Of a stretch of DNA of 64,000 bases, positions 1,565 to 57,147 are shown piece after piece. This DNA comes from a virus. Taxonomy: Duplodnaviria; Heunggongvirae; Uroviricota; Caudoviricetes. Position 1 is the stretch's first letter. Every line of letters begins with the position of its first letter. The DNA lies in IMG/VR virus record IMGVR_UViG_2609460125_000009, one strand, 5' to 3'. The notes under the pieces are model-generated. The model was not told where the DNA came from. It worked only from the letters and a program-made list of their open reading frames with translations, and made no database searches. Both the position numbers and the translations under genes were made by a program.

Positions 1565-2794
1565 ATGATAATTGAACAAATAACCCCTTGCTCGGAGCTT
1601 GGAATGACTGATACCGCTTTTTCAAAATCGTTACAAAAAGAAGTCGATCCTGAGCAGTACTTGGCGCTAAAGAATTTAGATGACAGCTCGGTTCATGCTA
1701 TTGCCCGTGACGATATCATCTGCCCCATTTGCAAAGTTGGAGGTGGTTCGTTCGTTAGAGCCACTAGGAATGGTGGCTATCACAAGAAGGCGCATTTCAG
1801 ATTTACCGGTGAAGATGGTCAAGGCCATCATCCATCATGTGATTTCTATGGAGATAGACTAACATCTGAGGTGAAGCAGCACCTTGTCTCATTCACAAAA
1901 GATCGAACAAAGTATTCGCAGGTAATACGAAAGCTGGTCTGTGCCGGCATACAGGAAGGGATATTTACTCAAGAAAAAATGTGGCAGATGAGGGAATGGT
2001 TCTTCAATAAGCGAAAGGATTCCACATTTGAAATATGGTTAGAAAGCGAGCATTTAGACTGGCTTTATTATATTAGTGGGTTACGTGATGCATATCTAGC
2101 ATGGACAACTCCTGATATTCTACCTTTCGCGCCCATTCAGGTTACTGTGCCTGGTTTTTCTTGGAAGCGTGCGATTGACAAAGAGGTGCTAAGAGTTCAC
2201 ATCAAGACTCTCCAGCAATTGCGTGAAATTTCAGTCTCACATAGAGACATTGCTGTAATCTTAGAACACATAAACAATAATCGTGACCGCACAATTCTCG
2301 ATCCATCGCATTTGGAGGACGAGATAAGTAAGACCTATAAGCTTACTAGTTTTGTGATGGGCAATTACATTGAGTTTCAGACAAAAACGGTTAGCGACAG
2401 AGCATACGGGGAAGCTAAGTTTCTGGCATTTGCAGCACTTTTGTTGTTCGTGTCAGATTGGGACCTCAACATTGCTATTGGTAAGTTTTCTAAGATTGCC
2501 AGAGTGAAGGAGGTTGATGACATGCTGGCTGGTAATTTCATTGGTCTTAATCCTTACTTCCGATACGACCTGGCTAATGCAGTGAAGAGATTGCAGGATA
2601 ACTGGCCGATTGAATACCAAGAGTTGGAGCATTGGAATGTTGAGAAATCCATGCGTGACGCATATGAAAAGTGGCGTGCGACAGAGCCTGAATTCGCTCC
2701 ACCCCTATTGCCAGACTTGTATATTGCCAAACATGAGAAAGAAGTCGCACAAGACGAGCAAGTCAGGCAGTGGATTAAGAACGGGGATGTTTGA
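1565..2794 (+). CDS. hypothetical protein with N-terminal zinc-ribbon-like Cys/His cluster
   Basis: 409-aa ORF; CPICK…HHPSCDFYG motif; start uncertain (ATG 1604 has a better RBS). Confidence 0.5.
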   Translation: MIIEQITPCSELGMTDTAFSKSLQKEVDPEQYLALKNLDDSSVHAIARDDIICPICKVGGGSFVRATRNGGYHKKAHFRFTGEDGQGHHPSCDFYGDRLTSEVKQHLVSFTKDRTKYSQVIRKLVCAGIQEGIFTQEKMWQMREWFFNKRKDSTFEIWLESEHLDWLYYISGLRDAYLAWTTPDILPFAPIQVTVPGFSWKRAIDKEVLRVHIKTLQQLREISVSHRDIAVILEHINNNRDRTILDPSHLEDEISKTYKLTSFVMGNYIEFQTKTVSDRAYGEAKFLAFAALLLFVSDWDLNIAIGKFSKIARVKEVDDMLAGNFIGLNPYFRYDLANAVKRLQDNWPIEYQELEHWNVEKSMRDAYEKWRATEPEFAPPLLPDLYIAKHEKEVAQDEQVRQWIKNGDV

Positions 2795-2849
2795 GTGTAA
2801 TTAGCTTAATCAATCAGTTGATAATGGCGGTCACAATTTGATTCTTTTC

Positions 2850-3720
2850 TATAAGAATCCGTTGATCGCCACTACTCTTCTTCCATACCTGCAATCACAC
2901 CTTTAAATATCAATAAGTTATAGTTGTTTATACAATCAAGAAAACAACTGAATAACAGATCAACGAAACATCAACGCTTTCACCCGATTTGGTCTAAAAA
3001 ATTGACGTATTCACACATCACTTCTTATACCCGTAATTCTACGCAGCAGACAGCGCCACAGCGTCCAATTTTCACCACAGACGACCCAACACACTACCAA
3101 CAAAAACACACGCTCAAAATCGCTCCCGTTGCGTTACACAACCATATAAACAACTTATTTTCAGGCATAACAAAACAACTAAATAACACACATGCCATTC
3201 CCCAAAACAACCAACCTCTTTATGGCAGGCTACCGAAAAGACCCACCTCTTCTCCCCAGGCTACCGGACAACCAACCTAACTTTCACAGGCAATCCGAAA
3301 ACATTCATACGCGCGATACCCACGACACGCCATTACCCAAACAGCGAAGAAACACCAGAATCACTGAAACCCCAACGAAGCCTGTAACCGCAAGGTTTCT
3401 CTCAATCCCAAAAGACACGAAACATAACAATCACGGGAAACGCCATTACCCAATACACGAATAACTACAAAAGCCTTTCACACACTCCAGACAAACAACT
3501 CAAACACAATAACGAAAGGAATCGCCCACCTGCCATTACTCCATACACGGAGAAGAACAATCACCAAAACGACGAGAACACCCCATAGAAGAACCACCGC
3601 AAAACGAACGAAACCACATACACCGACAGAGAGAACAACACACCCAATTCACAAACAGAAATAGTCGCCGCATAGAACGTTCTGGAAGGGGTGAGCATTA
3701 ACGCCTATAGAGAGGTTGAG
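2850..3720 (+). other. strongly A+C-skewed non-coding region with degenerate direct repeats
   Basis: G and T are scarce on the given strand; no ORF >=60 aa on the opposite strand; repeated GCCATTACCCAA and CAGGCTACCG units. Confidence 0.6.
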
Positions 3721-5289: not shown

Positions 5290-5685
5290 ATGACCGTTAA
5301 ACGCGAAAAACTGACAGTTGATGTTTACTATGCCTCTGAAACCGCCGAAGGTAAGAATGTGGCAAAAATCACCGTTGTTACGTACAACACCGAAACTGGT
5401 GCCGAAGTACAGGCCAGTACGATCGTGCGTAAAGGTGATGCCTCCGGCGGCGAGTACGCGACTCAATACCAGTCCATTCTCGATGCAACTGACCCGCTGC
5501 TGCTGAAAATCGAGAACTACTTCCGCCAGGTTGATGAAGAGGTGTTTGAAACCATGATGAATATGGTTAACACCGTATTCGCCTCCAGCCTGAACACCAG
5601 CACCACCTGGATTGGCCAGTACGGTCTGCGCATTACCTCTGGCATTCCTGCCGACACCTTAATCCCTGAAAGCGTATTCGCTTAA
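5290..5685 (+). CDS. hypothetical protein
   Basis: ORF with GGAGAG RBS. Confidence 0.45.
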   Translation: MTVKREKLTVDVYYASETAEGKNVAKITVVTYNTETGAEVQASTIVRKGDASGGEYATQYQSILDATDPLLLKIENYFRQVDEEVFETMMNMVNTVFASSLNTSTTWIGQYGLRITSGIPADTLIPESVFA

Positions 5686-5695
5686 TCCTCTTTAA

Positions 5696-5722
5696 ATGGC
5701 GCGTAAACCGCGCCATTTTATT
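5696..5722 (+). terminator. rho-independent terminator
   Basis: ATGGCGCG…CGCGCCAT stem followed by TTTTATT. Confidence 0.65.
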
Positions 5723-5731
5723 AAGCCCGAT

Positions 5732-5746
5732 AACAATTTGTTTTCT
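5732..5746. promoter_or_regulatory. motif family 1 site AACAATTTGTTTTC
   Basis: Palindrome upstream of the 5803 ORF. Confidence 0.45.
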
Positions 5747-5802
5747 GCCTTATCTGATTTGTGAAAATGATTTCACTGAAGCAACTTAATAAGGAAACCA
5801 TC

Positions 5803-6177
5803 ATGGGACTTGATATCTATATCGAGACACAGCCTAAAAACGATCTGAATAACGAGGCATCCAGAAAGCGGGTTGCTTACTTCCGTAAGTTCAATGCGCT
5901 CGTTGGGTGGATGGAGCGCAACGTAGGTGAAGTCGAAAATTGTGAGCTTTTAGAATTAACGATGAATGACATTTGTTTTCTGAAGGCTCATTTGATGCAC
6001 ATAAACGAAAGTAATTGCGAAGAGTACTTGCCTACCCGGGAAGGTTTTTTCTTCGGCAGTCAGGAGTACGATGAAGGTTACTGGCATGATGTGGGGGAGT
6101 TGAAAGAGCTTGTGGAAGATCTGATTAAGAACCACGACTTTCACAATAACAGACTGACCTTCTGCGCCTGGTGGTAA
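5803..6177 (+). CDS. hypothetical early protein
   Basis: ORF with AAGGAAACC RBS; the longer frame from 5761 would start at GTG. Confidence 0.45.
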   Translation: MGLDIYIETQPKNDLNNEASRKRVAYFRKFNALVGWMERNVGEVENCELLELTMNDICFLKAHLMHINESNCEEYLPTREGFFFGSQEYDEGYWHDVGELKELVEDLIKNHDFHNNRLTFCAWW

Positions 6178-7780: not shown

Positions 7781-8071
7781 CGCACATAATACGAGAGCGG
7801 ATACGGAACAAAACAAAATGCCGATCCGCGCCGACAATTAAACGCGGATCACATAGCAAGAATAAAAGCCAATGATTAACCATACACCATAACGCAATAT
7901 AACGCGATTTAAGCGCGTTAATGCGCTAAGTAATGGGTATGTACTGGTAAGGATATAAAAGCGCGTCTATGGCGTTATTTTGGCGCTTATTTTTATGTTG
8001 TTGGTGTGAGTCAAAGACAATAAAAAACGCGCTAATGATGGCGCGTTATGGTGGGAGTATTGGAAACGAAA

Positions 8072-8093
8072 AAAGCGCCCATAGTGGGCGCTC
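8072..8093 (-). terminator. hairpin AGCGCCCA-TAG-TGGGCGCT downstream of the 8098 gene
   Basis: Perfect 8-bp stem; identical copy at 8568. Confidence 0.45.
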
Positions 8094-8097
8094 GATT

Positions 8098-8328
8098 TTA
8101 TTTATGTAAACTGATTTCAAATCCCATTTCTACAAACGCTTTTAACATTAAAAATATATCAGCGTCATTCACGTCTGCTTTTTTTCGCTCCTGGTCGCTC
8201 AATAAGTCAATTTTGCGCGTCGTTTCATCTATAAGCTCGACTGCGCGCCCAGCGTAACCAGCGATCCCAGCGATGCGATTAACATAATATTCGTTATGGA
8301 CGTTAACGCCAGCGATAAGAACAAACAT
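8098..8328 (-). CDS. hypothetical protein (76 aa)
   Basis: ORF in an AT-rich operon. Confidence 0.4.
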   Translation of the reverse strand: MFVLIAGVNVHNEYYVNRIAGIAGYAGRAVELIDETTRKIDLLSDQERKKADVNDADIFLMLKAFVEMGFEISLHK

Positions 8329-11147: not shown

Positions 11148-12707
11148 CTAATCTCGTTTCAGAACTCCAAAATCGAATGCTCCATCAATAGGCAATACAC
11201 CTTCTGCAAAGCCAGGTGTGGTGTCGATGATGTGTTTTCGCTCATAAGAGTGAGACAACAGGTATTTGTTGCTAATGTCAATGAAATCAGTGATAAAACA
11301 CACGTTTGCCTGATTTTTTTTGGCTCGTAAGCCACGACCGACACGTTGTCTCATTTCAACTTCTGCTTTCCCACCACCAGCAAGAATGACCGCACCAACG
11401 CTTGGCACATCAACACCAACATCCAGAATAGTCGAGCCTATTAAAACATCTATTTCACCAGACGCTAAACTGTTCAGCTTTGCTTGCCTTGTCGTCTGGT
11501 TAGATTCCCCATAGATGAAATCAACTCTAAGACCTGACTCCTTCATCATCTCCATCAGGATTTGCCCGTGGCGTTTAAGACGAACCAGAGTCATGCAGTT
11601 GAGTGAATGTTGCTTATAAAGCAATGCCTCGCGCACTATGGCCTCGTTACGTCCCAAATTATACACGATCCCCAACTGATAAGCCTTTTGGTAGGCGGTG
11701 CTCATACCAACTCTAAAATTGAGATGTTTGTTGGCAAGTTCGGCCTTGATTCTGGCCTCGTCTGGCTTGTAGGCAACTTTATGATAAAGGAAGTACGGCT
11801 TTGCCAGAATGCCTCGATCAATCAGGTACTTTTCTGTGACTTTAATTTCAATTCGCCCGGCCACCGCCATCAGGCGCATGTTGGCTTCCGTCGAATCCTT
11901 CATGAACGGCGTGGCTGTAAGCGCCAGACGATAGTCTGCGTTCACACATAATCTGGCGATGTCATAGAAATTTGAGCCTGAAGACTCATGCGCCTCTTCC
12001 AGAATAAGAAGAGAGACACTTGAAAGGAAGCGTTTCACCAACTCCCGACGTTTGAGGTGGTAGCTTTTCTTATCTGGTGTTGCATCGCGTGGTGGTTCTT
12101 CGAGGAAACTTGCAAGAGTTTGAACTGTAGCGACGTTGATATGTCGTGATACCTGGAACTCACCCGAGCCAATGACTCCAACCTTTTGGTCTTTTAACCA
12201 CGGTTCGCCATTTTTGGCGCGGTAGTCGATGGATCTCTGGAAGTTTTCGGCCATTTGAAACATCAGAACAGAGCGGGTTGTTAAAAATAATGTCATTCGA
12301 CCGATACGTGCAGCTGCTTTGCAGGCAACATTAGATTTCCCGCCACCAGTAGCGATCTGCGCAATCATCATTCCCTCTCGAACCAGTGTTTCCACAGTCT
12401 GATCCTGATACGCATAATCAGGATTGTATGGGAATGGGTTAACCGCCGGATTTGGTTTACCAAGCGCCGGGGCTTTGTCTTTGCGGATATGAACACATTT
12501 GATGCCCGCCTTGTTCAAGTTCGCCGCTACAGGCTTGGCAAAGCCAGCAGGGAACGAGTTTTTACTCCAGTTGAACATCGTGCTTGTGCCCTTCCAGTCG
12601 CCAGTCTCGACTTCGTAGCTCAACATTTGCTGCACCAGTTGCTTTACCTTGTCATCTGCGCCAGAAATAAGCGCATTTACTGCGTTAGATACAATCCGAA
12701 CAGTCAT
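11148..12707 (-). CDS. superfamily-2 DEAD/DEAH-box helicase
   Basis: Motif I ATGGGKS, motif II LILEEAHE, motif III TATP, motif VI QRVGRGLR. Confidence 0.75.
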   Translation of the reverse strand: MTVRIVSNAVNALISGADDKVKQLVQQMLSYEVETGDWKGTSTMFNWSKNSFPAGFAKPVAANLNKAGIKCVHIRKDKAPALGKPNPAVNPFPYNPDYAYQDQTVETLVREGMMIAQIATGGGKSNVACKAAARIGRMTLFLTTRSVLMFQMAENFQRSIDYRAKNGEPWLKDQKVGVIGSGEFQVSRHINVATVQTLASFLEEPPRDATPDKKSYHLKRRELVKRFLSSVSLLILEEAHESSGSNFYDIARLCVNADYRLALTATPFMKDSTEANMRLMAVAGRIEIKVTEKYLIDRGILAKPYFLYHKVAYKPDEARIKAELANKHLNFRVGMSTAYQKAYQLGIVYNLGRNEAIVREALLYKQHSLNCMTLVRLKRHGQILMEMMKESGLRVDFIYGESNQTTRQAKLNSLASGEIDVLIGSTILDVGVDVPSVGAVILAGGGKAEVEMRQRVGRGLRAKKNQANVCFITDFIDISNKYLLSHSYERKHIIDTTPGFAEGVLPIDGAFDFGVLKRD

Positions 12708-12752
12708 AAACCTCTTTCCTTAGTGCCTTTTGTATGTTATTTGGCTATTATA

Positions 12753-12772
12753 ATAAGTAAGTGATTACTTAG
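12753..12772. promoter_or_regulatory. motif family 2 palindrome ATAAGTAAGTGATTACTTAG in a divergent promoter region
   Basis: Inverted repeat between the helicase operon (-) and the ParB-like operon (+). Confidence 0.45.
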
Positions 12773-12789
12773 TGGATTGTAGCAATAAA

Positions 12790-13470
12790 ATGGATGTAAA
12801 AATCACGATTTTGCAGGTTGATGTTGCCAACCTTCGCCCGAATACCTGGAACACCAATTCGGTTGGTGCGCAGAATTTTGAAAAACTGAAAGGTTCTATC
12901 GAAAAATTGGGCTTTTTTAAGCCAATTTTGGCTCGTGAACTTGAAGATGGATTTTTTGAAATCCTCGGCGGCGAACATCGCTGGCGTGCTGCTATTGAGC
13001 AAGGAATTTCAACGGTTCCGGTGCTTTCTGTGGGCAAAATTAGCGATGTCGTAGCTAAACAGATGTCACTGGTGGACAACGAGCGATACGGTGAAGACGA
13101 CCAAATCGCATTGCAACGCTTCATTGAAGAAATTCAGTCAGAACTTGACTATCAACTGTCTGAAATCGCCCCGTATGACGACGAAATCTCGATGGTTTTA
13201 GCAAAAGAGGCGGCAATCGACCTTGAAGCACTGGAGGCGTTGTCTCGTGGTAGTGATGAGCCTGTCGATACCGACAAACGAGAGAAAACCGAACGTGTGG
13301 GTGCGGAACATCAGACCATGCGCTTCAAAGTAACTTTCGATGCGTCAGATCGTGTTGCAGAAACCATAAAAAACATCATCAAAGAGCAGGCTATTAACAC
13401 CGGTAATGAAATGGAGAACGCTGGTGAGGCTCTGGTGTGGCTGGTCGACTACTACAAGGAGCGTATGTAA
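12790..13470 (+). CDS. ParB/Srx-fold nuclease-like domain protein 1
   Basis: ParB N-terminal-like motif (…FEILGGEHRWRAA…); start could be 12772. Confidence 0.6.
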   Translation: MDVKITILQVDVANLRPNTWNTNSVGAQNFEKLKGSIEKLGFFKPILARELEDGFFEILGGEHRWRAAIEQGISTVPVLSVGKISDVVAKQMSLVDNERYGEDDQIALQRFIEEIQSELDYQLSEIAPYDDEISMVLAKEAAIDLEALEALSRGSDEPVDTDKREKTERVGAEHQTMRFKVTFDASDRVAETIKNIIKEQAINTGNEMENAGEALVWLVDYYKERM

Positions 13471-14138
13471 TGACCAAAAAGTTTGAAATCGTATATCGCG
13501 ACCCGGCAGATCTTATTCCCTATGAGATGAATGCCAAAAAGCATGATGAACAGCAGATCCGAGATCTGGCCGCAGCCATTAAAAAGCGCGGATTTGACCA
13601 GCCAATTACGGTCGATAAGAACGACGTAATTATTACTGGCCACGGCCGCCGTGAGGCTGCAATTTTTGCTGGACTTGAGCGCGTACCGGTTATTGTTCGC
13701 GATGATCTCAGTGATGACGAGGTTCGTGCGAAGCGCCTTGAAGATAACCGACTTGCCAGCATTGATTACGATGCAATTAAGCTACAGAAAGAGCTTGAGT
13801 CGCTTGTTCTGGACGATATCGAGGTTTTCGGCTTTGAAGAGCGTGAGTTGAATGTTCTCGTTGGCAGCATGACAGAAGAAATGGACACCGACTCGCTAGT
13901 TATCGATCTTGGCGAAGAAACTAAACGACAGAAGGATGAACACACCGAGATCAGTCGTGAAGTTGCAGCGGAAGAAGTACGTGTTGTCGACGTATTGGGC
14001 TTTAAAACGCTTCCTGCTGGCTCTGCCATTGTTGTTGGTGATTTGCTTGCCCACATGGAAGAAATGACGGGAGAAAGCGGGGTAGACGCATTTGTGGCAT
14101 ATGCGGAGAAGATCTCTTCCGGGGAGATGGCTGCATGA
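13470..14138 (+). CDS. ParB/Srx-fold nuclease-like domain protein 2
   Basis: ParB-like motif (…VIITGHGRREAA…); start overlaps the upstream stop (TAATG). Confidence 0.6.
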   Translation: MTKKFEIVYRDPADLIPYEMNAKKHDEQQIRDLAAAIKKRGFDQPITVDKNDVIITGHGRREAAIFAGLERVPVIVRDDLSDDEVRAKRLEDNRLASIDYDAIKLQKELESLVLDDIEVFGFEERELNVLVGSMTEEMDTDSLVIDLGEETKRQKDEHTEISREVAAEEVRVVDVLGFKTLPAGSAIVVGDLLAHMEEMTGESGVDAFVAYAEKISSGEMAA

Positions 14139-14800
14139 GCAAATACATCATCAACGTATCGTTTCAGACTCGCGTAAATAAAACCACGCGCACGTTGGAA
14201 ATCGCTGAGTCGTTCGGGCTTGGCCTGGACGAAAAAGAGTGGACGCTTTACGACAATCTGGAGCTGGAAGTGAAGCAGGGCGATGTGGTGTACATCACCG
14301 GCCAATCCGGTTCCGGCAAATCCGTTGTGCTGCGCGAGTTGCAACGACAGATGAAGGATGAAGGGCTGTCTGTAGCCTCCATCGATGATTTTACCTTCGA
14401 TAATGAGGTTAACGTCATCGATCAGTTGGGCAAAACGACCAGCGATGCGCTTGGGTTGTTATCTATGGCTGGTCTGAACGATGCATATCTGTTTGTTCGC
14501 AAGCCTTCTGAAATGTCAGACGGTCAGAAATATCGTCTCAAGATTGCCAAATTGATTGAGTCAGGCGCTAAAGTGTGGGCTGCTGACGAGTTCGGTGCTG
14601 TTCTAGACCGTGTAACCGCTCAGGTTGTGGCATCTAACCTCCAGCGTGCCGCTCGAAAGGTTGGTGCGACGGTAATGGTGGCGACGACTCACGAAGACCT
14701 GAAGAACGCGCTGCGCCCGGATATGCAGATCACCAAGCACTACAAAGAACGCGTGAAGGTGGAATATCACAATGGTAGTCATGATGAGGTTCATTTATGA
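14135..14800 (+). CDS. stand-alone ABC-type ATPase domain protein
   Basis: Walker A GQSGSGKS, ABC-signature-like MSDGQKYRL, Walker B AADEFG; start overlaps the upstream stop. Confidence 0.6.
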   Translation: MSKYIINVSFQTRVNKTTRTLEIAESFGLGLDEKEWTLYDNLELEVKQGDVVYITGQSGSGKSVVLRELQRQMKDEGLSVASIDDFTFDNEVNVIDQLGKTTSDALGLLSMAGLNDAYLFVRKPSEMSDGQKYRLKIAKLIESGAKVWAADEFGAVLDRVTAQVVASNLQRAARKVGATVMVATTHEDLKNALRPDMQITKHYKERVKVEYHNGSHDEVHL

Positions 14801-15687
14801 CGGACATCATCATTAAACGCTACCGCCCTGAAGAGTTTCCGCGTCATCTGGACTTTCTGGAGCGAATGACTGTCACAAAGGGAACTGTAGAGGACTGGCA
14901 CGCTCTTAAGTCGCTTCACTACAAAACAGACGGCAAACCTTTCGCGCCAACTTACTATCGCTGCGAACTTGATGACCGTCTGGTGGGCGTCGTGGTTATG
15001 GCTTACCCGAAACTACTGCTGGCACCTCGCCACCGCATGTTTCCTAAGTTGAAACCAACCACTAATACCACCGTGGCTAACCAGTACTGGGGTCGGTACG
15101 TGAATAACAACTTTGCGGTGATCAGTCGCTCAGTTGTGGATACTCAGTATCGTGGCGTAGGCGTCTCTTATCGAATGATTAACCTGGTTAGCAGGATGCA
15201 TGACCGGCCAATCATTGAGATCCAGTCCTCGATGAGCAAATACAATCCCTTCGCCATGAAAGCAGGGTTTAAGTTCATCCGCCCTGAGCGACCGAAGAGC
15301 TATGAAAGTGCACTGCGTGTATTCCAGCGCCATTTCCGTTCCGACCCGGGTGATAACGAGGCGATCGTCAAAGAGTTGTTCGCAATGAGCGAGTCTCGTC
15401 GTCGCCGTGCACTGCGTGATCTGGTGGCGGACTACCACAAGAACAGTTCCCTGGCAAAAGCTGGGCGGAATCGTGGCACGACGATTCAGGACATTGCCGA
15501 CAGTCTGGTGGACGAGGCCAGCATTGTGAAGCTGCTCAAGGACATTCACAACCTGAGCTTTACGTCTCCGTTGTATGGTGTGTACCGAAACCCTGACTTT
15601 GGCCGTCGACTGCCTGACACGCTGCCACTGCTGGCATTCGACAAACAACCTTTGGATAAACCGTTAGAAATTGCTTTACCGGCATAA
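14797..15687 (+). CDS. hypothetical protein with GNAT-like acyl-CoA binding motif
   Basis: Q-x-x-G-x-G motif (VVDTQYRGVGVSYRMINLV) after a hydrophobic strand; translationally coupled to the ATPase gene. Confidence 0.45.
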   Translation: MTDIIIKRYRPEEFPRHLDFLERMTVTKGTVEDWHALKSLHYKTDGKPFAPTYYRCELDDRLVGVVVMAYPKLLLAPRHRMFPKLKPTTNTTVANQYWGRYVNNNFAVISRSVVDTQYRGVGVSYRMINLVSRMHDRPIIEIQSSMSKYNPFAMKAGFKFIRPERPKSYESALRVFQRHFRSDPGDNEAIVKELFAMSESRRRRALRDLVADYHKNSSLAKAGRNRGTTIQDIADSLVDEASIVKLLKDIHNLSFTSPLYGVYRNPDFGRRLPDTLPLLAFDKQPLDKPLEIALPA

Positions 15688-15696
15688 GGATTTGCC

Positions 15697-15963
15697 ATGA
15701 CGTTAACCGATAAACAAAAGGACATCATCAAAACGCTCAATCTCGGTTATGAGCGAGGTCATCTACTTGACCTGGACGAATTGCTTGAAGTTTTGCCGTA
15801 CAAGACAACTAAGCAAAGTATCCAGTTCTCAATTCGCGCTCTGATAAAAAAGGGGCTGGTGGAGAAAGGGCATACGCGCCAACGCAGTGACAATCGCTAT
15901 CACCGCCGAACTCTTGGGTTAACCACTTTAGGTCGAGCCAAAGCGAAGTTACTGGTGATGTAA
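15697..15963 (+). CDS. small DNA-binding protein (winged-helix-like)
   Basis: 88-aa basic ORF; HTH call is by pattern only. Confidence 0.4.
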   Translation: MTLTDKQKDIIKTLNLGYERGHLLDLDELLEVLPYKTTKQSIQFSIRALIKKGLVEKGHTRQRSDNRYHRRTLGLTTLGRAKAKLLVM

Positions 15964-15987: not shown

Positions 15988-16042
15988 CCTGCTTCTGTAT
16001 ATATAAATAATAAGTAACTTATTAAATATATACGGAAGCAGG
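15988..16042. repeat. 55-bp hairpin element, copy 1 (CCTGCTTCTGTATATATAAATAATAAGTAACTTATTAAATATATACGGAAGCAGG)
   Basis: Imperfect palindrome with a motif-family-2-like centre; identical copy at 48434-48488. Confidence 0.7.
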
Positions 16043-16158: not shown

Positions 16159-16791
16159 ATGACGGTCGAAAAAGACGAGGTAAAAACTCGCCTGACACCA
16201 GCGGAGTGGGCCGAAGCTGAAGCCAAATGGACGTCAGGCGAATATACACTCTCAAAGCTGGAGGAAGAGTACGGCATTCGTCGTGAAACACTCTCCAGAC
16301 ATTTCAAAAAGCGAGGATTAGAGAAAGGCGCGGACTCTGTTGGGAAGATGGTTCGTGAGTCTCTTAAATCTGACGCAGAGCTTCGCGCTAAAGCCCGTGC
16401 GGAAAAGATAGAAGAACGTCGTACACGTTATGACGGCTGGGCGTATGCGTTGGGGCAGATGGTGATGGTCGAAGTCACTACGGCCAAACGTGAGGGTAAG
16501 CCTTTAGGGGCGATTGAGGATTCTCTCAAGAGCTTACAGAGAGCCAGTAATACCCTTGCAAAATGCTTTGAAGTTTCGTCCAAAGCATTGGGCATGGATC
16601 ATGCGGAAAATGACGAGGAAGAAATTCCGAACCTGGTATTTGGTGAGCTTACGCCTTCCCAGGTGGCGAAATTACGTCAGGAAGACGACGAGCCTGAAAT
16701 CATCGATGACGAATTGCTTGAGACGTTGGAAGAAGAAGCTCTAAGCGAATTTGATGCGACAGATGATGGAAGTGAAGGGGAGGACGAATAA
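16159..16791 (+). CDS. terminase small subunit (putative)
   Basis: Position immediately upstream of terminase large subunit; acidic C-terminus. Confidence 0.55.
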   Translation: MTVEKDEVKTRLTPAEWAEAEAKWTSGEYTLSKLEEEYGIRRETLSRHFKKRGLEKGADSVGKMVRESLKSDAELRAKARAEKIEERRTRYDGWAYALGQMVMVEVTTAKREGKPLGAIEDSLKSLQRASNTLAKCFEVSSKALGMDHAENDEEEIPNLVFGELTPSQVAKLRQEDDEPEIIDDELLETLEEEALSEFDATDDGSEGEDE

Positions 16792-18047
16792 TGGCAATCC
16801 CGTCCTCGCTCAGTCTTGTGCAACTGCATTCTGGACAGATGAAAGTCTTCCAGTCTCCGCATCGATTTAAAGTTGTTTGTGCTGGTCGACGCTGGGGAAA
16901 ATCCCGGTTGTCGATCTCCACTATTATTCGTGCGGCGGCAAAGGAAAAAAAGCAAAGGGTCTGGTATGTCGCTCCTACTTACCAGATGGCTCGCCAGATT
17001 TTGTGGGACGATCTACAGGAAGTTCTGCCTCGTAAGTGGGTTAGGAAAAAGAACGACACCACGATGACAATCGTGTTGAAGAACGGTTCGGAGATCGCCC
17101 TCAAAGGTGCTGATAAGCCTGACACTCTGCGCGGCGTAGCGTTGCATTTTGTAGTGCTTGATGAATTTCAGGATATGAAGGCTGACACTTGGTACAAGGT
17201 GTTACGACCTACTCTTTCATCGACACGCGGCGGTGCACTGATCATTGGTACGCCAAAAGGCTTCTCGGAATTTCACAAACTGTGGACTATAGGCCAGAAC
17301 GTAGAGCTGCAAAGAAAGGGACAGTGGAAGAGCTGGCAGTTTGTAACTGCCGATTCTCCGTTTGTACCTACGGCGGAAATTGAAGCTGCTAAGAACGATA
17401 TGGACCCCAAATCGTTCGCTCAGGAGTACCTGGCCAGCTTTGAGAACATGTCCGGGCGCGTTTACTACCCGTTCGATCGTAACGTGCATGTAAAACCGCT
17501 TCAGTTCAACCCTCGGTTACCTATATGGGTAGGGCAGGACTTCAACATTGACCCGATGTCTTCCGTAATTTTGCAACCTCAGCCAAATGGTGAGCTATGG
17601 GCAATTGATGAATTGGTGCTCTTTTCCTCTAACACGGCAGAGGTTTGTGATGAGCTTGAGAGACGCTTCTGGCGCTGGAAATCACAGATAACGATATTTC
17701 CAGATCCGGCAGGTGCTTATCGCCAACATGCTCGCGGGGAGTCTGACGTCGACATATTCAAAGAGAAGGGATTCTTACGTGTCGATTATTCGAAAAAGCA
17801 CCCGCCAATTGCGGATCGTGTTAATGCTGTTAACCGAATGCTGATGACCGCATCTGGAGATATCCGGCTGTATATCGATCCGAAGTGCAAGCATTTGATT
17901 GATTCACTGGAAAAAGTCATCTACAAGCCTGGAACACGAGATATGGATAAGACAGGTGGCATTGAGCATAGTGCAGACGCATTGGGCTATCCAGTACATC
18001 GTAGGTATCCAGTCAAAAACCGTGTTATTCTTGGTGGTTCTCGATAG
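16791..18047 (+). CDS. terminase large subunit
   Basis: Walker A-like VCAGRRWGKS, Walker B VVLDEF; gene order. Confidence 0.8.
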   Translation: MAIPSSLSLVQLHSGQMKVFQSPHRFKVVCAGRRWGKSRLSISTIIRAAAKEKKQRVWYVAPTYQMARQILWDDLQEVLPRKWVRKKNDTTMTIVLKNGSEIALKGADKPDTLRGVALHFVVLDEFQDMKADTWYKVLRPTLSSTRGGALIIGTPKGFSEFHKLWTIGQNVELQRKGQWKSWQFVTADSPFVPTAEIEAAKNDMDPKSFAQEYLASFENMSGRVYYPFDRNVHVKPLQFNPRLPIWVGQDFNIDPMSSVILQPQPNGELWAIDELVLFSSNTAEVCDELERRFWRWKSQITIFPDPAGAYRQHARGESDVDIFKEKGFLRVDYSKKHPPIADRVNAVNRMLMTASGDIRLYIDPKCKHLIDSLEKVIYKPGTRDMDKTGGIEHSADALGYPVHRRYPVKNRVILGGSR

Positions 18048-18073: not shown

Positions 18074-19648
18074 ATGGAATTGAACGACAAACAAATTAAG
18101 GATCTGGTGGCGCGACGCCACCCGGAATACGAAAAGAAAAAAGAACATTGGGACTTCCTCGCCAGCACTTACGCTGGCGGGCGTGGTTGGTTTACAGACA
18201 ATATCTTTCGTTACTTTAAAGAGGGAGATCAGGAGTTTAAGGAGCGAGTTGAACGTGCTTATCGCTTCAACCACACTCGTGAGGTGGTAAACCTCATCAA
18301 CAAATATCTCTTTAAAGAAGACATTCATAGAAATATCGAAGAGGCACCAGAGCAGATCCGCAATTTCTGGAAACGTGCGACTCGCCAGAATGCCTCTATT
18401 GACTCATTTATGGCCGCTATTGATTTGCAGTCGTCTATTTACGGTCGCATATGGGTTGTTGTCGATAGCACGATGAGTGGTGATGTTGAGTCAGTAGCTG
18501 ACGAGAAAAAGAAAGATGCTCGCGCCTACGCCTACTGGATTTCACCTCAGCAAATGCTGGATGTGGCATGGGACGACGACGGGAATATGTTGTGGGCGTT
18601 AATTGTGGAAGTCGCTCGTGATGACGCAGATCCTTTTACTTCTACAGGTCAGGAATACCAACGTTATCGTCTGTGGACACAAAACGAGTGGTATCTGTTC
18701 CGTGAGGAAGTGAAGAAGGGCGCTGGTGGAGCAGGTCGCCGTCAGGCAAAAGTTATTTTAGAGGATAGCGGTGAGCATAATCTCGGCGTAGTTCCTGTGT
18801 TTCCTGTTGATTGTATTGGAGAAAGTGAATCACCGTATTTCAGCCCATCGTTGATCGATGATATCGCTTATCTTGATCGTGCGGTTGCAAACTATCTGTC
18901 AAACCTTGATGCCATTATTCAGGATCAGACATTTAGCCAGTTGGCTATACCGGTACAGTCGCTTTTACCTGGTGATGAAAACCACACTAAAGTGCTTGAA
19001 ATGGGCACAAAGCGAGTCTTCACCTACGATTCTGAAGGCGGAAACCAGCCGTTTTATCTGTCACCAGACCCGAAACAAGCTCAGATGATCATCACTACGA
19101 TTAAGACGGTGATTAACGAAATCTACCATTCAGTTGGTGTAGCTGGTGAGCGAACGAAGCAGGACAACGCACAGGGAATCGATAATTCATCTGGTGCCGC
19201 AAAAATGTATGACTTCCAGCGTGTAAATAGCTTGCTTGTCACAAAAGCAGAGCGTCTGGAAAGGGCTGAACGCCAAATCATGCTACTGGTTGCGAAATGG
19301 ATGGGGGTAGATCTGGACGAAGACCACTCTTTAATTGCGTATCCAGAAAGTTTCGATATTCGTGGCCTTACTGATGAATTTTCTGTTGCCGAGAAACTGT
19401 CATTACTTCAGGCACCGGACTCTGTACGTCGTCACCAGATGGAAATGCTTATTGAGAAGATTTTCCCGAACATTACTGAGGCGATGAAAAAGGAATTTGA
19501 TAAAGATCTCTTGAATTTTCCTCCAAAAAATGATCTAAATACCCTTGAAAATAAGTCAGTACTTACTTATGATCGTGGTGCAGCCCAAGAAAGCGGGCAA
19601 GATCAACCCCGAGGGAATGGGGACTCATCTACTCAAGAGAACGAGTGA
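18074..19648 (+). CDS. portal protein (putative)
   Basis: 524 aa directly after terminase large subunit. Confidence 0.65.
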   Translation: MELNDKQIKDLVARRHPEYEKKKEHWDFLASTYAGGRGWFTDNIFRYFKEGDQEFKERVERAYRFNHTREVVNLINKYLFKEDIHRNIEEAPEQIRNFWKRATRQNASIDSFMAAIDLQSSIYGRIWVVVDSTMSGDVESVADEKKKDARAYAYWISPQQMLDVAWDDDGNMLWALIVEVARDDADPFTSTGQEYQRYRLWTQNEWYLFREEVKKGAGGAGRRQAKVILEDSGEHNLGVVPVFPVDCIGESESPYFSPSLIDDIAYLDRAVANYLSNLDAIIQDQTFSQLAIPVQSLLPGDENHTKVLEMGTKRVFTYDSEGGNQPFYLSPDPKQAQMIITTIKTVINEIYHSVGVAGERTKQDNAQGIDNSSGAAKMYDFQRVNSLLVTKAERLERAERQIMLLVAKWMGVDLDEDHSLIAYPESFDIRGLTDEFSVAEKLSLLQAPDSVRRHQMEMLIEKIFPNITEAMKKEFDKDLLNFPPKNDLNTLENKSVLTYDRGAAQESGQDQPRGNGDSSTQENE

Positions 19649-48433: not shown

Positions 48434-48488
48434 CCTGCTTCTGTATATATAAATAATAAGTAACTTATTAAATATATACGGAAGCAGG
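48434..48488. repeat. 55-bp hairpin element, copy 2
   Basis: Identical to 15988-16042. Confidence 0.7.
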
Positions 48489-56294: not shown

Positions 56295-56369
56295 GATGGT
56301 GTAGCTCAGCGGTAGAGCAGTTGGCTGTTAACCAACTGGTCGGTGGTTCGAATCCACCCACCATCGCCA
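56295..56369 (+). tRNA. tRNA-Asn (anticodon GTT)
   Basis: Hand-folded cloverleaf: acceptor GATGGTG/CACCATC, anticodon loop CTGTTAA, T-loop TTCGAAT, 3' CCA encoded. Confidence 0.8.
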
Positions 56370-56374
56370 ATTTA

Positions 56375-56461
56375 GGGGAGTTAGTCCGTAGAGGTAGCGG
56401 GGTAGACTGTAAATCTACTGTCATTGCGACTCGGGTGGTTCGACTCCATCACTCCCCACCA
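56375..56461 (+). tRNA. tRNA-Tyr (anticodon GTA), long variable arm
   Basis: Acceptor GGGGAGT/ACTCCCC, anticodon stem-loop GTAGA-CTGTAAA-TCTAC, long variable arm; D-arm pairing is atypical. Confidence 0.6.
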
Positions 56462-56465
56462 AATT

Positions 56466-56541
56466 GCCGGTTTAGCTCAGTTGGTAGAGCGCCTGCCTTG
56501 TAAGCAGGATGTCAGCGGTTCGATCCCGTTAACCGGCACCA
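56466..56541 (+). tRNA. tRNA-Thr (anticodon TGT)
   Basis: Acceptor GCCGGTT/AACCGGC, D-arm GCTC-AGTTGGTA-GAGC, anticodon loop CTTGTAA, T-loop TTCGATC. Confidence 0.8.
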
Positions 56542-56904
56542 ACACAACAGGTAAGAGCATTGGGCGAATCGGCGATACTGACCCACAAGCCCGTAAATCG
56601 ATAGAGTCAGACCAGTGCTCTTACCGTTGTGAGGAAGTGCAGCTCTTTGAAGCAACCAGAAGATAAGCATCTGGCTTCACAACACAACGATAAGATCATT
56701 ACGGTTAATCGTCGTTCATGTGCACAATGACTGGTCGAAAGGTAGTGATCTTACCGTTGTGGTGGATTCGCAGACTGATGCGATAGCTTTCTTGGATGTT
56801 AGGGAAATGCGGCCGCAAATCTTCCCTTTCGCGAGCGGTGATCGTCCGTAGTCCTAATTGGCTGCACCGTATGCCGGAGATTCAGTACCGGCCACCACAA
56901 CGGC

Positions 56905-56991
56905 CGGAGAGTAGGGAGCATGGTGCTCAAGCGGTCTTGAAAACCGTCCCATTGCGCAAGCGATGATGGTTCGATTCCATTACTCTCCGCC
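56905..56991 (+). tRNA. tRNA-Ser (anticodon TGA), long variable arm
   Basis: Acceptor GGAGAGT/ACTCTCC, anticodon loop CTTGAAA, T-loop TTCGATT; D-arm atypical. Confidence 0.55.
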
Positions 56992-57147
56992 AGACACAGC
57001 GTTGAGCGGTTTGGCCTTTTAATCACCCAGATTAAGACTCCGCTAACATAAACCAGACCGCTCAACGCTGTGATAGACAATTACGGCAGACGTTCTTAAC
57101 CATAGCTTGCTAACATCCTAGCAACACTTTTTTTCAGCGCAAAATTC

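Follow-up and report, generated by a model that had tools for sequence, protein, structure and literature searches.

A split ABC-GNAT enzyme with two ParB-like proteins upstream of the terminase genes of an SSU5-like phage-plasmid, a candidate for the acylation of phage DNA

What may be the function of five closely packed genes that encode two ParB-like proteins, an ABC-type ATPase, a GNAT-like protein, and a small basic protein and are located directly upstream of the terminase genes of a phage? This question was raised by a first-pass annotation of 64,000 nucleotides of viral DNA, subsequently called the window, which favored an acylation or modification of nucleic acids and named an anti-restriction function or a packaging-accessory set as alternatives. 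The operon is located at positions 12790-15963 of an E. coli SSU5-like phage-plasmid, which is 98.9 to 99.5% identical to the phages CMS-2020a and Cyrano, with 99.5% in the case of Cyrano. The element is a plasmid prophage, and its E. coli matches were all on plasmids (254 of 254).

All five open reading frames were present on the plus strand. The genes g1 (12790-13470, 226 aa) and g2 (13470-14138, 222 aa) encode proteins with a ParB/Srx fold, g3 (14135-14800, 221 aa) a stand-alone ABC nucleotide-binding domain, g4 (14797-15687, 296 aa) an acyltransferase with a GNAT fold, and g5 (15697-15963, 88 aa) a small basic protein that is probably a winged-helix DNA binder. The annotations of PhiR41_1 and Cyrano let g1 start with the ATG at 12790, with a GTG at 12772 upstream of it also being open, and the true start of g2 is the ATG at 13470, with the upstream GTG at 13437 not being used. 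The g1 and g2 genes overlap by 1 nt in a common TAATG preceded by AAGGAG, g2/g3 and g3/g4 by 4 nt in an ATGA preceded by GGGGAG and GAGG, respectively, and g4 and g5 are separated by a gap of 9 nt, with an AAGGA spanning the stop codon. At the sequence level, the translational coupling of the five genes is thereby borne out.

The region upstream of g1 (12708..12789) separates the module from a divergent gene on the minus strand (11148..12707) for an SF2 helicase of the UvsW/DEAD-like type with ResIII, DEAD, and Helicase_C domains, which always adjoins the module in the SSU5/nickie clade. No strong sigma-70 consensus was found within 12708..12789. This region contains the perfect palindrome TAAGTAAGTGATTACTTA at 12754-12771, composed of TAAGTAA, GTGA, and TTACTTA, which had been assigned to a palindrome family; indeed, 12 matches with up to 2 mismatches were present in the window compared to 0.14 expected. 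The palindrome is probably an operator. On the other side, an inverted-repeat search revealed a perfect hairpin of 55 bp at 15988..16042, between g5 and the gene for a TerS-like DNA-binding protein (16159-16791, plus strand; phrog_867, E = 2e-100). The hairpin is real, with a DNA fold energy of -17.3 kcal/mol and z = -8, but it is not unique, because an identical second copy (55/55) is located at 48434-48488. The hairpin delimits the module from the morphogenesis block, which continues with the terminase large subunit (16791-18047, plus strand, an open reading frame with Terminase_6N calls in the syntenic loci) and a portal gene (18074-19648, with portal calls in the syntenic loci).

The center of the module is formed by g3 and g4. 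The motifs previously indicated for g1 to g4 were all found at their positions. In g3, these are a Walker A motif (GQSGSGKS, residues 56-63), a signature (SDGQ, 128-131), a Walker B motif (VWAADE, 147-152), and an H-loop (TH, 185-186), and the ABC_tran profile matched with E = 6e-13. The predicted structure of g4, a basic protein with a pI of 9.8, is that of a GNAT with a catalytic domain at residues ~20-165, a helical insert at ~168-255 without a recognizable DNA-binding fold, and a conserved terminal strand. In the acyl-CoA motif QYRGVG (residues 117-122), R119 and G122 were invariant across 36 homologues, and so was the terminal-strand motif Y-G-x-Y-x-N-P, which reads LYGVYxNPD here and persists as YxxWxNP (A3 consensus) in a clade of fused proteins. 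Dozens of relatives are single polypeptides in which a g3-like ABC domain is followed by a g4-like GNAT domain. The N-terminal halves of such relatives with ~450-500 aa, fused to a g4-like domain, matched g3 with E = 1e-40 to 1e-63, which is far closer than the ~1e-13 obtained for ABC domains of transporters. Because ATPase and GNAT are one polypeptide in distant relatives, g3 and g4 are one split enzyme, with g3, a canonical ABC nucleotide-binding domain, as the ATPase half and g4 as the transferase half. Some relatives are fused to a family-B DNA polymerase or carry an intein.

The first-pass annotation knew of no described phage system with this domain combination, and this has to be corrected. 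The combination is already described; annotators label g4 as [quoted passage not shown] and ABC-GNAT proteins were independently predicted by the Aravind group, in Iyer et al. 2021 (PMC7824862) restating Iyer et al. 2013, to acylate a DNA nucleobase. No experiment on an ABC-GNAT protein was found in the literature searched, so that the class is known as a prediction only.

Both ParB-like proteins are acidic, with a pI of 4.55 for g1 and 4.53 for g2 and acidic C-terminal halves, and carry box II-like motifs, GGEHR at residues 60-64 of g1 and GHGRR at residues 58-62 of g2. They are 33% identical to each other and matched the ParB_N profile with E = 3e-13 (g1) and E = 1e-8 (g2), phrog_723 with E = 2e-79 (g1), and phrog_930 with E = 1e-112 (g2). 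Could they be centromere-binding proteins responsible for partition of the phage-plasmid? The ParB_N domains, the RefSeq name of g1, "ParB/RepB/Spo0J family partition protein," and the existence of the element as a plasmid prophage would agree with this, and the N-terminal NTP-binding fold with box II-like motifs is also that of ParB from ParABS systems. However, the partition-ParB model TIGR00180 yielded 43 bits compared to a cut-off of 58, with g1 and g2 both below it and no full-length match. The likeness of g1 to structures of Spo0J, ParB, and Noc is confined to the N-terminal domain, with the HTH region aligning poorly, and neither profile nor structure comparison detected a DNA-binding domain or a convincing HTH in g1 or g2. 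There is also no adjacent gene for ParA; in the 99.5%-identical Cyrano record, a gene for a ParA/MinD-like protein is ~15 kb away on the other strand. Moreover, the same genes are found in phages without a sign of a plasmid lifestyle, in siphophages for which no temperate behavior was observed (the nickie relative psageB1) and in integrated Streptococcus prophages, always together with ABC-GNAT and terminase genes. An ordinary partition function is consequently highly improbable.

The ParB-like pair is instead connected to the enzyme. The g2 protein is 45% identical (E = 1e-26) to a ParB-like protein of Streptococcus phage phiNIH1.1, the gene of which immediately precedes that for ABC-GNAT. 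Of the two ParB proteins, g2 is the conserved partner of the ABC-GNAT enzyme, and g1 is an extra paralogue specific for the SSU5/nickie clade. Both proteins matched ParB domains fused to DNA methyltransferases, in the case of g2 with E = 1e-31 for phrog_498 and E = 3e-17 for MTase_II of PADLOC.

The fifth protein, g5, is strongly basic (pI 10.2), matches phrog_900 with E = 2e-45, is conserved throughout the SSU5/nickie clade, and has homologues in the same position in the loci L084, L086, L087, L089, and L090. Its sub-threshold matches were all to winged-helix families, LexA_DNA_bind (0.072), Sta1 (0.0025), Lrs14 (0.004), the CARF-associated wHTH (4.5e-5), and the MarR-type regulator ST1710 (0.15), which makes a winged-helix protein plausible. 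Four of the five initial domain calls, both ParB_N, ABC, and GNAT, thus stand as made, and the wHTH call for g5 is a sub-threshold one.

The block of helicase, ParB, ParB, ABC, GNAT, wHTH, and terminase genes is kept down to 41-47% identity and also in ~110-kb siphophages, with no temperate behavior observed for the nickie relative psageB1. The module is a core, strictly syntenic block of the whole phage lineage and not an accessory island, and this lineage includes siphophages without a sign of a plasmid or temperate lifestyle. Module genes were absent from the listed Cyrano genes expressed in the lysogen, and this, together with the retention in siphophages, supports a core function in the lytic phase.

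Outside this clade, the order ParB, ABC-GNAT, terminase recurs in Streptococcus, Lactococcus, Gordonia, Leptospira, and Pasteurella phages. In all non-jumbo cultured-phage lineages inspected (the SSU5 clade, Streptococcus, Lactococcus, two Gordonia groups, Leptospira, and Pasteurella), a ParB-like gene is located immediately upstream of the enzyme gene, and in five of them the gene for the terminase large subunit follows 1-4 genes downstream. For phage Jace, a small-subunit terminase gene was the only one seen, six genes downstream. In the metagenomic clade of fused proteins, the large-subunit gene immediately precedes the enzyme gene in 59 of 80 loci, and a ParB gene was present in only 2 of the 80; none was seen near the ABC-GNAT copies of Vibrio phage vB_VmeM-32 and Tenacibaculum phage pT24. 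The linkage to terminase genes is the most persistent feature of the wider ABC-GNAT family, and ParB is not universal in it.

This persistent linkage, even without ParB as in those 59 loci, would fit an ABC-GNAT enzyme that is brought to the DNA by the ParB proteins and acetylates a packaging protein, or that aids or regulates the packaging-initiation complex. TerS, TerL, the portal, or a DNA-bound host protein would be candidate targets, most characterized GNATs acetylate proteins or small molecules, and the public SSU5 and Cyrano records are linearized between g5 and the TerS-like gene. On the other hand, a separate TerS-like gene exists and overlaps the start of the TerL gene, so that the small terminase is not supplied by the module, and with its second copy at 48.4 kb, the hairpin cannot be a pac or cos site that occurs only once. 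The DNA polymerase fusions have no connection to packaging, and the neighboring genes considered below are more in keeping with a nucleobase chemistry that diversifies than with a housekeeping modification of proteins. Of the packaging-accessory alternative in the first-pass annotation, the terminase linkage remains as its argument, and a role in packaging is possible but doubtful.

The neighboring genes in relatives point to an acyl transfer onto a nucleobase. In Rhodococcus/Gordonia phage Jace, the order is ParB, ABC-GNAT, the aspartate decarboxylase PanD (E = 2e-33), and a family III CoA-transferase (E = 2e-8), the latter two being a plausible route to beta-alanyl-CoA, and in Gordonia phage Axumite this position is taken by the gene for a formyltransferase (E = 1e-8). 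An ASCH-domain gene adjoins the enzyme gene in phiNIH1.1 and in 11 of the 80 metagenomic loci. ASCH proteins hydrolyze or recognize N4-acylcytosine, with ac4C nucleosides among their substrates (PMC6972931), and were also reported as erasers of ac4C in tRNA (bioRxiv 10.64898/2026.02.27.708502), so that the ASCH clue fits an RNA target equally well.

Alternatively, the ATPase-GNAT pair may acetylate cytidine in tRNA of host or phage or in another RNA, which would tune translation during infection. TmcA and NAT10 are established cases of an ATP-dependent GNAT reaction with cytidine, phage nickie harbors genes for tRNA-Met and tRNA-Asn beside the block, and Cyrano encodes MetRS. However, 9 of 11 related loci lack tRNA genes in the vicinity of the module, and the tRNA cluster of the window is 40 kb away and contains no tRNA-Met. 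The ATPase is of the ABC type and not of the helicase type of TmcA, no TmcA-specific or tRNA-binding domain was detected in the module proteins, and the ParB partners, the linkage to terminase genes, and the fusions to DNA polymerase are all indicative of DNA, leaving RNA as an unlikely target.

Counter-defense without a DNA modification, with the ParB/Srx proteins acting as NTPases or nucleases and ABC-GNAT inactivating a host defense factor or a signaling nucleotide, is very unlikely. Nuclease and NTPase activities of the ParB/Srx superfamily in genetic conflicts are documented (cited in PMC10853773), and g3 is weakly similar to defense ABC/AAA ATPases such as mad3 (E = 2e-13) and PtuA. Nevertheless, g4 and g5 matched no PADLOC system model and g3 matched generic P-loop/ABC ones, the block is a fixed syntenic core and not a variable island, and the presence of genes for donor synthesis in relatives implies a transfer reaction of a biosynthetic kind.

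The best explanation, to which about an even chance is given, is that the module is a ParB-assisted, ATP-dependent acyltransferase that modifies bases of the replicated phage DNA before packaging. The nucleic-acid acylation by ATPase, GNAT, and ParB-fold partners proposed by the first-pass annotation is thus also the best-supported reading. The ParB gene upstream, the terminase linkage, the DNA polymerase fusions, and the basic nature of g4 and g5 compared to the acidic ParB proteins point to DNA. The enzyme, split into g3 and g4 here and made as one chain in many other phages and in elements of archaea or bacteria, would engage the nucleic acid by ATP-driven closure of the ABC domains, which may expose a base or gate access to it. 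The basic subunit g4 would then move an acyl group from acyl-CoA to an exocyclic amine of the base, with N4 of cytosine as the leading candidate position. As genes for the synthesis of a donor are missing from the module, acetyl-CoA is the probable donor. The acidic, NTP-binding ParB proteins g2 and g1, without recognizable HTH, may serve as an activator or targeting subunit, as modeled on ParB-like proteins that serve other DNA-modifying enzymes, and g5 may recognize DNA or autoregulate the operon. The operon would probably be repressed in the plasmid prophage via the operator-like palindrome and switched on during lytic growth, leading to virion DNA that is modified and resistant to restriction. 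Anti-restriction is therefore retained as the probable purpose of the modification and not as a separate rival reading. Arguments against DNA acylation are the g4 insert without a DNA-binding fold, the ParB proteins without a DNA-binding domain, and that ParB is not universal. No modified base in SSU5-like, nickie-like, or other enzyme-carrying phages was reported in the searchable papers, and the genomes of enzyme-carrying phages sequence without reported difficulty.

Among the known systems, TmcA and NAT10, the cytidine N4-acetyltransferases of tRNA and rRNA, couple an NTPase to a GNAT that acetylates a nucleobase, as proposed here. This NTPase-GNAT pairing, to which the first-pass annotation referred, is no more than an analogy; the TmcA ATPase is helicase-type and not ABC, none of the accessory domains of TmcA was found in the module proteins, and the genomic context of the module is DNA-centered. 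Mom of phage Mu modifies adenine in DNA, shares the GNAT fold with g4, and resembles its proposed role as a phage-encoded, acyl-type DNA modification against restriction. Mom was the best viral structural match to g4, with scores that do not separate it from other GNATs, and no sequence relationship between both was detectable. Mom has no ATPase or ParB partner, whereas g4 contains its helical insert of ~90 residues.

The module most likely works like the ParB-dependent base modification systems. Phage thymine dioxygenases (5mYOX) need a ParB-like activator without a DNA-binding domain and co-occur with terminases (PMC13229309), DpdB, the partner of the transglycosylase DpdA, is described as a ParB-like ATPase (PMC12839542), and there are fusions of ParB domains to DNA methyltransferases (PMC12704722). 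Common to 5mYOX/ParB, DpdB/DpdA, and, as proposed, the module is an NTP-binding protein of the ParB fold in which no DNA-binding domain is obvious, encoded beside a post-replicative enzyme that modifies DNA bases, often near a terminase. The partner here is, however, an ABC-GNAT acyltransferase instead of an Fe/2-oxoglutarate dioxygenase or a transglycosylase, two ParB paralogues are present, and the ParB dependence of the enzyme is a predicted one.

The closest relationship is to the ABC-GNAT class itself (COG2401, "MK0520"), with the same catalytic pair in the same order, ABC before GNAT, and g3 and g4 matching the halves of the fused members; Tenacibaculum phage pT24, named as an example in PMC7824862, was recovered as a homologue of the module enzyme. 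Compared to this predicted class, the enzyme is split here into two overlapping genes, with two ParB paralogues before it and a small basic protein, probably a wHTH protein, after it, and this core block of the SSU5/nickie lineage has a fixed place between helicase and terminase genes. The basic idea of an acylation by ABC-GNAT proteins had been predicted already, and the split form with two ParB proteins is new here.

The module at 12790 to 15963 consisted of five genes on the plus strand, and the description in the first-pass annotation of a block of coupled genes with a set of named motifs was confirmed. Two ParB-like proteins are encoded by g1 (12790 to 13470) and g2 (13470 to 14138), an ABC ATPase by g3 (14135 to 14800), a GNAT protein by g4 (14797 to 15687), and an 88-aa probable wHTH protein by g5 (15697 to 15963). 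The successive junctions were TAATG, ATGA, ATGA, and a 9-nt gap, with a Shine-Dalgarno-like purine run before each of them, an arrangement that indicates translational coupling, as read from the sequence. All five products gave strong matches to phage-specific PHROG families (723, 930, 293, 886, and 900, respectively). Predicted isoelectric points were 9.8 for g4 and 10.2 for g5 compared to 4.5 for the ParB proteins, and this charge pattern fits a nucleic-acid substrate gripped by the g4 enzyme and g5, with g1 and g2 as protein-binding partners. Three phage-plasmids of Escherichia, CMS-2020a, PhiR41_1, and Cyrano, shared the region at 98.9 to 99.5% identity, and Salmonella phage SSU5 at 85%; SSU5, Cyrano, and PhiR41_1 are cultured carriers. 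When 5,426 complete genomes of E. coli were considered, 247 contained the 3.2-kb module, every time on a plasmid of about 110 kb, where g4 and g5 are labeled in RefSeq as hypothetical proteins. Four clustered tRNA genes (Asn-GTT, Tyr-GTA, Thr-TGT, and Ser-TGA) were located at 56295 to 56992, about 40 kb from the module.

The g3 product matched ABC_tran over the cut-off (E = 6e-13), and its Walker A motif, signature, Walker B motif, and H-loop could all be placed. Searches with the g4 sequence against Pfam, NCBIfam, PADLOC, and PDB yielded nothing significant, and the fold was identified by structure prediction after these sequence-only searches had failed: g4 contains a GNAT-fold acyl-CoA transferase domain. 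Residues 168 to 255 of the model form a helical insert, about 90 residues long, ahead of the last beta-strands, which bear the invariant motif Y-G-x-Y-x-N-P; the insert and C-terminal region (residues 166 to 296), modeled alone, had no fold match in PDB. A profile search with the g4 family among 1.8 billion representative proteins returned 886 relatives. Most of the full-length distant ones were single polypeptides of about 450 to 500 aa in local phmmer comparisons, and in more than 70 single-chain relatives the N-terminal half resembled g3 (E = 1e-40 to 1e-63) and the C-terminal half g4, with Pfam recognizing ABC_tran in the fused proteins plus GNAT models in several of them. Because distant relatives carry both parts as a single polypeptide, g3 and g4 are predicted to be one enzyme of the COG2401 architecture that is split here into two genes, the stop codon of g3 overlapping the start codon of g4 as ATGA. 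Source records of g4 homologues already bear the annotation “ABC-type ATPase with predicted acetyltransferase domain.” Unusual architectures were seen in four ABC-GNAT relatives (P0165, P0177, P0204, and P0155), comprising an intein with a LAGLIDADG domain inside the ABC domain and proteins of 791 and 1260 aa with a family-B DNA polymerase fused at the N terminus; a TFIIB-like repeat at the C terminus, also seen, suggests an archaeal origin.

ParB_N scored above the Pfam cut-off in both g1 and g2. The domain calls of the first-pass annotation thus held for these two proteins, for ABC_tran in g3, and, by structure, for GNAT in g4, while the wHTH call for g5 was backed by concordant sub-threshold matches, which a family profile did not lift above the threshold. 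Assignment of g1 and g2 to a ParABS partition system was rejected. Both reached 43 bits with the TIGR00180 partition-ParB model versus a cut-off of 58.45, the Spo0J HTH region aligned to g1 at low confidence and to g2 not at all, and no ParA gene was present in or adjoining the operon, the MinD/ParA-like gene of Cyrano being about 15 kb away; moreover, the module also occurs in nickie-type siphophages and integrated prophages. A known defense system was likewise not recognized by PADLOC, in which g4 had no match, g3 appeared as a generic ATPase, and g1 and g2 matched only the ParB portion of a methyltransferase model. That portion belongs to ParB-methyltransferase fusions, which are enriched in prophages (PMC12704722). 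A partnership of ParB-like proteins with DNA-modifying enzymes has experimental precedents: phage thymine dioxygenases need a ParB-like activator without a DNA-binding domain and often have terminases in their loci (PMC13229309), and DpdB has been described as a ParB-like ATPase partnering DpdA (PMC12839542). Since g2 was 45% identical to a Streptococcus phage ParB (E = 1e-26) and g1 only 35%, sequence comparison marks g2 as the conserved ParB partner of ABC-GNAT.

Within the SSU5/nickie lineage, the gene order remained unchanged down to 41 to 47% identity of g4. It reads helicase (minus strand), ParB, ParB, ABC, zero to two small ORFs, GNAT, small basic protein, TerS-like protein, TerL, and portal, and was found in marine and other metagenomic contigs as well as in siphophages of about 110 kb of Pseudomonas (nickie), Rhizobium (RHEph10), Stenotrophomonas, and Xanthomonas. 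For psageB1, a relative of nickie, temperate behavior was not observed. The conserved order at this level of divergence, together with the siphophage carriers, indicates that the module is a core block of the lineage, neither a variable island nor a function tied to the plasmid. The small ORFs (47 to 111 aa, unrelated-looking) occur singly or in pairs between ABC and GNAT or between the ParB genes of relatives, and none in the window; examples are SSU5_128 of SSU5 (8067 to 8321 of its locus), gp156 of nickie (5646 to 5981), and insertions in two further loci with g5 homologues in the same position (L084, 6598 to 6997; L086, 6705 to 6995). Outside the window, the near-identical phage Cyrano (locus L003) encodes an ASCH-domain protein near repA (CYRAN_64, 2433 to 3077), a second small ABC ATPase within a nucleotide-metabolism cluster (CYRAN_75, 14622 to 15266), and a MetRS (CYRAN_100).

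When the g4 alignment was used to look for related loci, it recovered close relatives only, with at least 78% identity. Distant contexts were obtained from the contigs of individual homologues, from a tblastn search of phage records with a fused homologue, which revealed remote ABC-GNAT relatives in unrelated phages, and from a second scan with the fused alignment. A ParB-like gene was located directly 5' of ABC-GNAT in Streptococcus phiNIH1.1, Lactococcus P335, Gordonia Axumite, Rhodococcus/Gordonia Jace, Leptospira LE3, and Pasteurella Pmp13, and TerL followed one to four genes downstream in five of these six lineages; in Jace, the sole terminase gene seen was that of the small subunit, six genes downstream. 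The ParB to ABC-GNAT to terminase arrangement spans phages of Proteobacteria, Firmicutes, Actinobacteria, and Spirochaetes. No ParB gene was seen near the ABC-GNAT copies of Vibrio vB_VmeM-32 and Tenacibaculum pT24, and among the 80 viral contigs of a metagenomic clade with ABC and GNAT in one polypeptide, seed searches and a ParB HMM found a ParB gene in two, which rules out ParB as a universal partner of ABC-GNAT. In 59 of the 80 loci of this fused clade, a Terminase_6N protein was encoded directly upstream of ABC-GNAT, and in 11 the gene immediately downstream had an ASCH domain. The ABC-GNAT gene of these IMG/VR contigs (L099 to L178) comes after TerL, often as the final gene of the contig, and only 35 of the 80 loci extend more than 1.5 kb beyond it, which hints at a place next to a genome terminus.

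The main rival of DNA acylation is a role connected to packaging, by acetylation of a protein or by assembly of an initiation complex, which this very persistent terminase linkage favors; the module would then be an unrecognized, widespread accessory of terminase function. Against it stand the DNA polymerase fusions, donor-synthesis genes in relatives, and the presence of a separate TerS-like gene. The latter (16159 to 16791, phrog_867) overlaps the start of TerL (16791 to 18047) and fills the place of the terminase small subunit, which the module itself cannot claim. It is separated from the module by 195 bp, which hold a perfect 55-bp hairpin at 15988 to 16042. A second copy at 48434 to 48488 is identical at 55 of 55 positions, and both bracket a morphogenesis block of about 32 kb that starts at the TerS-like gene. 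Because of this identical second copy, a cos or pac site was ruled out for the hairpin, and the presence of two copies suggests that the element acts as a boundary, a terminator, or an operator and is not a unique site of packaging. Both SSU5 and Cyrano have public linear records that end inside the hairpin (about 16024/16025), between g5 and the TerS-like gene; these ends may represent a physical end of the genome, a break in assembly at the palindrome, or a convention. The center of the hairpin is also the core of a palindrome family, TAAGTAA-N4-TTACTTA, with 12 matches at two or fewer mismatches versus 0.14 expected (12754, 16004/16011, 19552, 31530, 38442, 48450/48457, 48574, 52008, 52889, and 55530). 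Hairpin and palindrome family are statistically real, and the palindromes are probably dispersed operators of a phage regulator. One such operator-like palindrome precedes the operon, which is absent from the list of lysogen-expressed genes in the Cyrano study and may be expressed in the lytic phase.

Genes that adjoin ABC-GNAT in relatives provide clues to its chemistry. In Jace, ParB, ABC-GNAT, an aspartate decarboxylase (PanD, E = 2e-33), and a family III CoA-transferase (E = 2e-8) are encoded in one cluster (gp85 to gp88, L098 3156 to 5921). PanD and the CoA-transferase provide, in our inference, a plausible route to beta-alanyl-CoA, and the cluster resembles a pathway, complete in itself, that would supply an unusual acyl donor of this kind. 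Directly after ABC-GNAT in Axumite, gp3 (L092 1805 to 2452), which is recorded as “tRNA-methyltransferase,” matched Formyl_trans_N (E = 1e-8), and in phiNIH1.1 an ASCH protein adjoins ABC-GNAT. Such donor-type neighbors argue for an active acyl-CoA-dependent transferase with a donor that varies between phages; in the phage considered here, it may be acetyl-CoA. Variation of the donor is typical of DNA hypermodification pathways. ASCH proteins hydrolyze N4-acylcytosine derivatives (PMC6972931), and on this basis the leading candidate for the modified position is N4 of cytosine.

The best-supported reading of the module is a ParB-assisted, ATP-dependent acyl-CoA transferase that would modify the DNA of the phage after replication and before packaging, probably for evasion of restriction, with targeting or activating roles predicted for g1, g2, and g5. 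A more specific version is put forward tentatively, as possible but somewhat improbable in all its parts: the split ABC-GNAT, targeted or activated by a heterodimeric, NTP-gated ParB partner, would mark phage DNA immediately before it is packaged with N4-acetyl-deoxycytidine or another N-acyl base of this type, a different donor (beta-alanyl or formyl) in sister phages would diversify the mark, ASCH proteins would be its readers or erasers, and the enzyme would be the first tractable DNA N-acyl writer. Acylation of nucleic acid, proposed in the first-pass annotation, was thereby retained as the preferred interpretation, still unproven, but its novelty was not: ABC-GNAT, with phage pT24 named, had been predicted to acylate a DNA nucleobase, with Iyer et al. 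2013 cited as the source (PMC7824862). DNA-nucleobase acylation by ABC-GNAT is thus a published computational prediction. No experimental study of ABC-GNAT or of base acylation by it was found in the searchable literature, and searches for COG2401 and MK0520 likewise gave nothing relevant. The window contains a variant of the predicted system that is split, has two ParB proteins, bears a probable wHTH protein, and has carriers among the cultured phages of both E. coli and Salmonella, so that a question standing since 2013 becomes directly testable. If confirmed, DNA acylation by the module would extend the known hypermodifications of phage DNA by a new class, with new tasks for the ParB NTPase fold and for ABC ATPases, and would offer candidate tools to write and erase acyl marks on DNA.

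Eukaryotic DNA has been reported to contain N4-acetyl-deoxycytidine, and we know of no writer enzyme identified for it. To our knowledge, Mom, a DNA adenine methylcarbamoylase, is the only enzyme for which N-acylation of DNA bases has been demonstrated, and the g4 sequence did not fall into the Mom GNAT subfamily. TmcA is a helicase-type ATPase fused to GNAT plus tRNA-binding domains. An RNA target like that of TmcA is possible, though poorly supported: tRNA genes do not lie consistently near the module, a linkage that was checked and judged weak, and the ATPase belongs to another class. The makeup of TmcA, with which the first-pass annotation compared the pairing of ATPase and GNAT, was not found here: g4 has no other Pfam domain, such as one for tRNA binding, its insert matches no fold, and the ATPase that would drive the acyl transfer is not of the helicase type as in TmcA/NAT10 but an ABC-type ATPase, g3.
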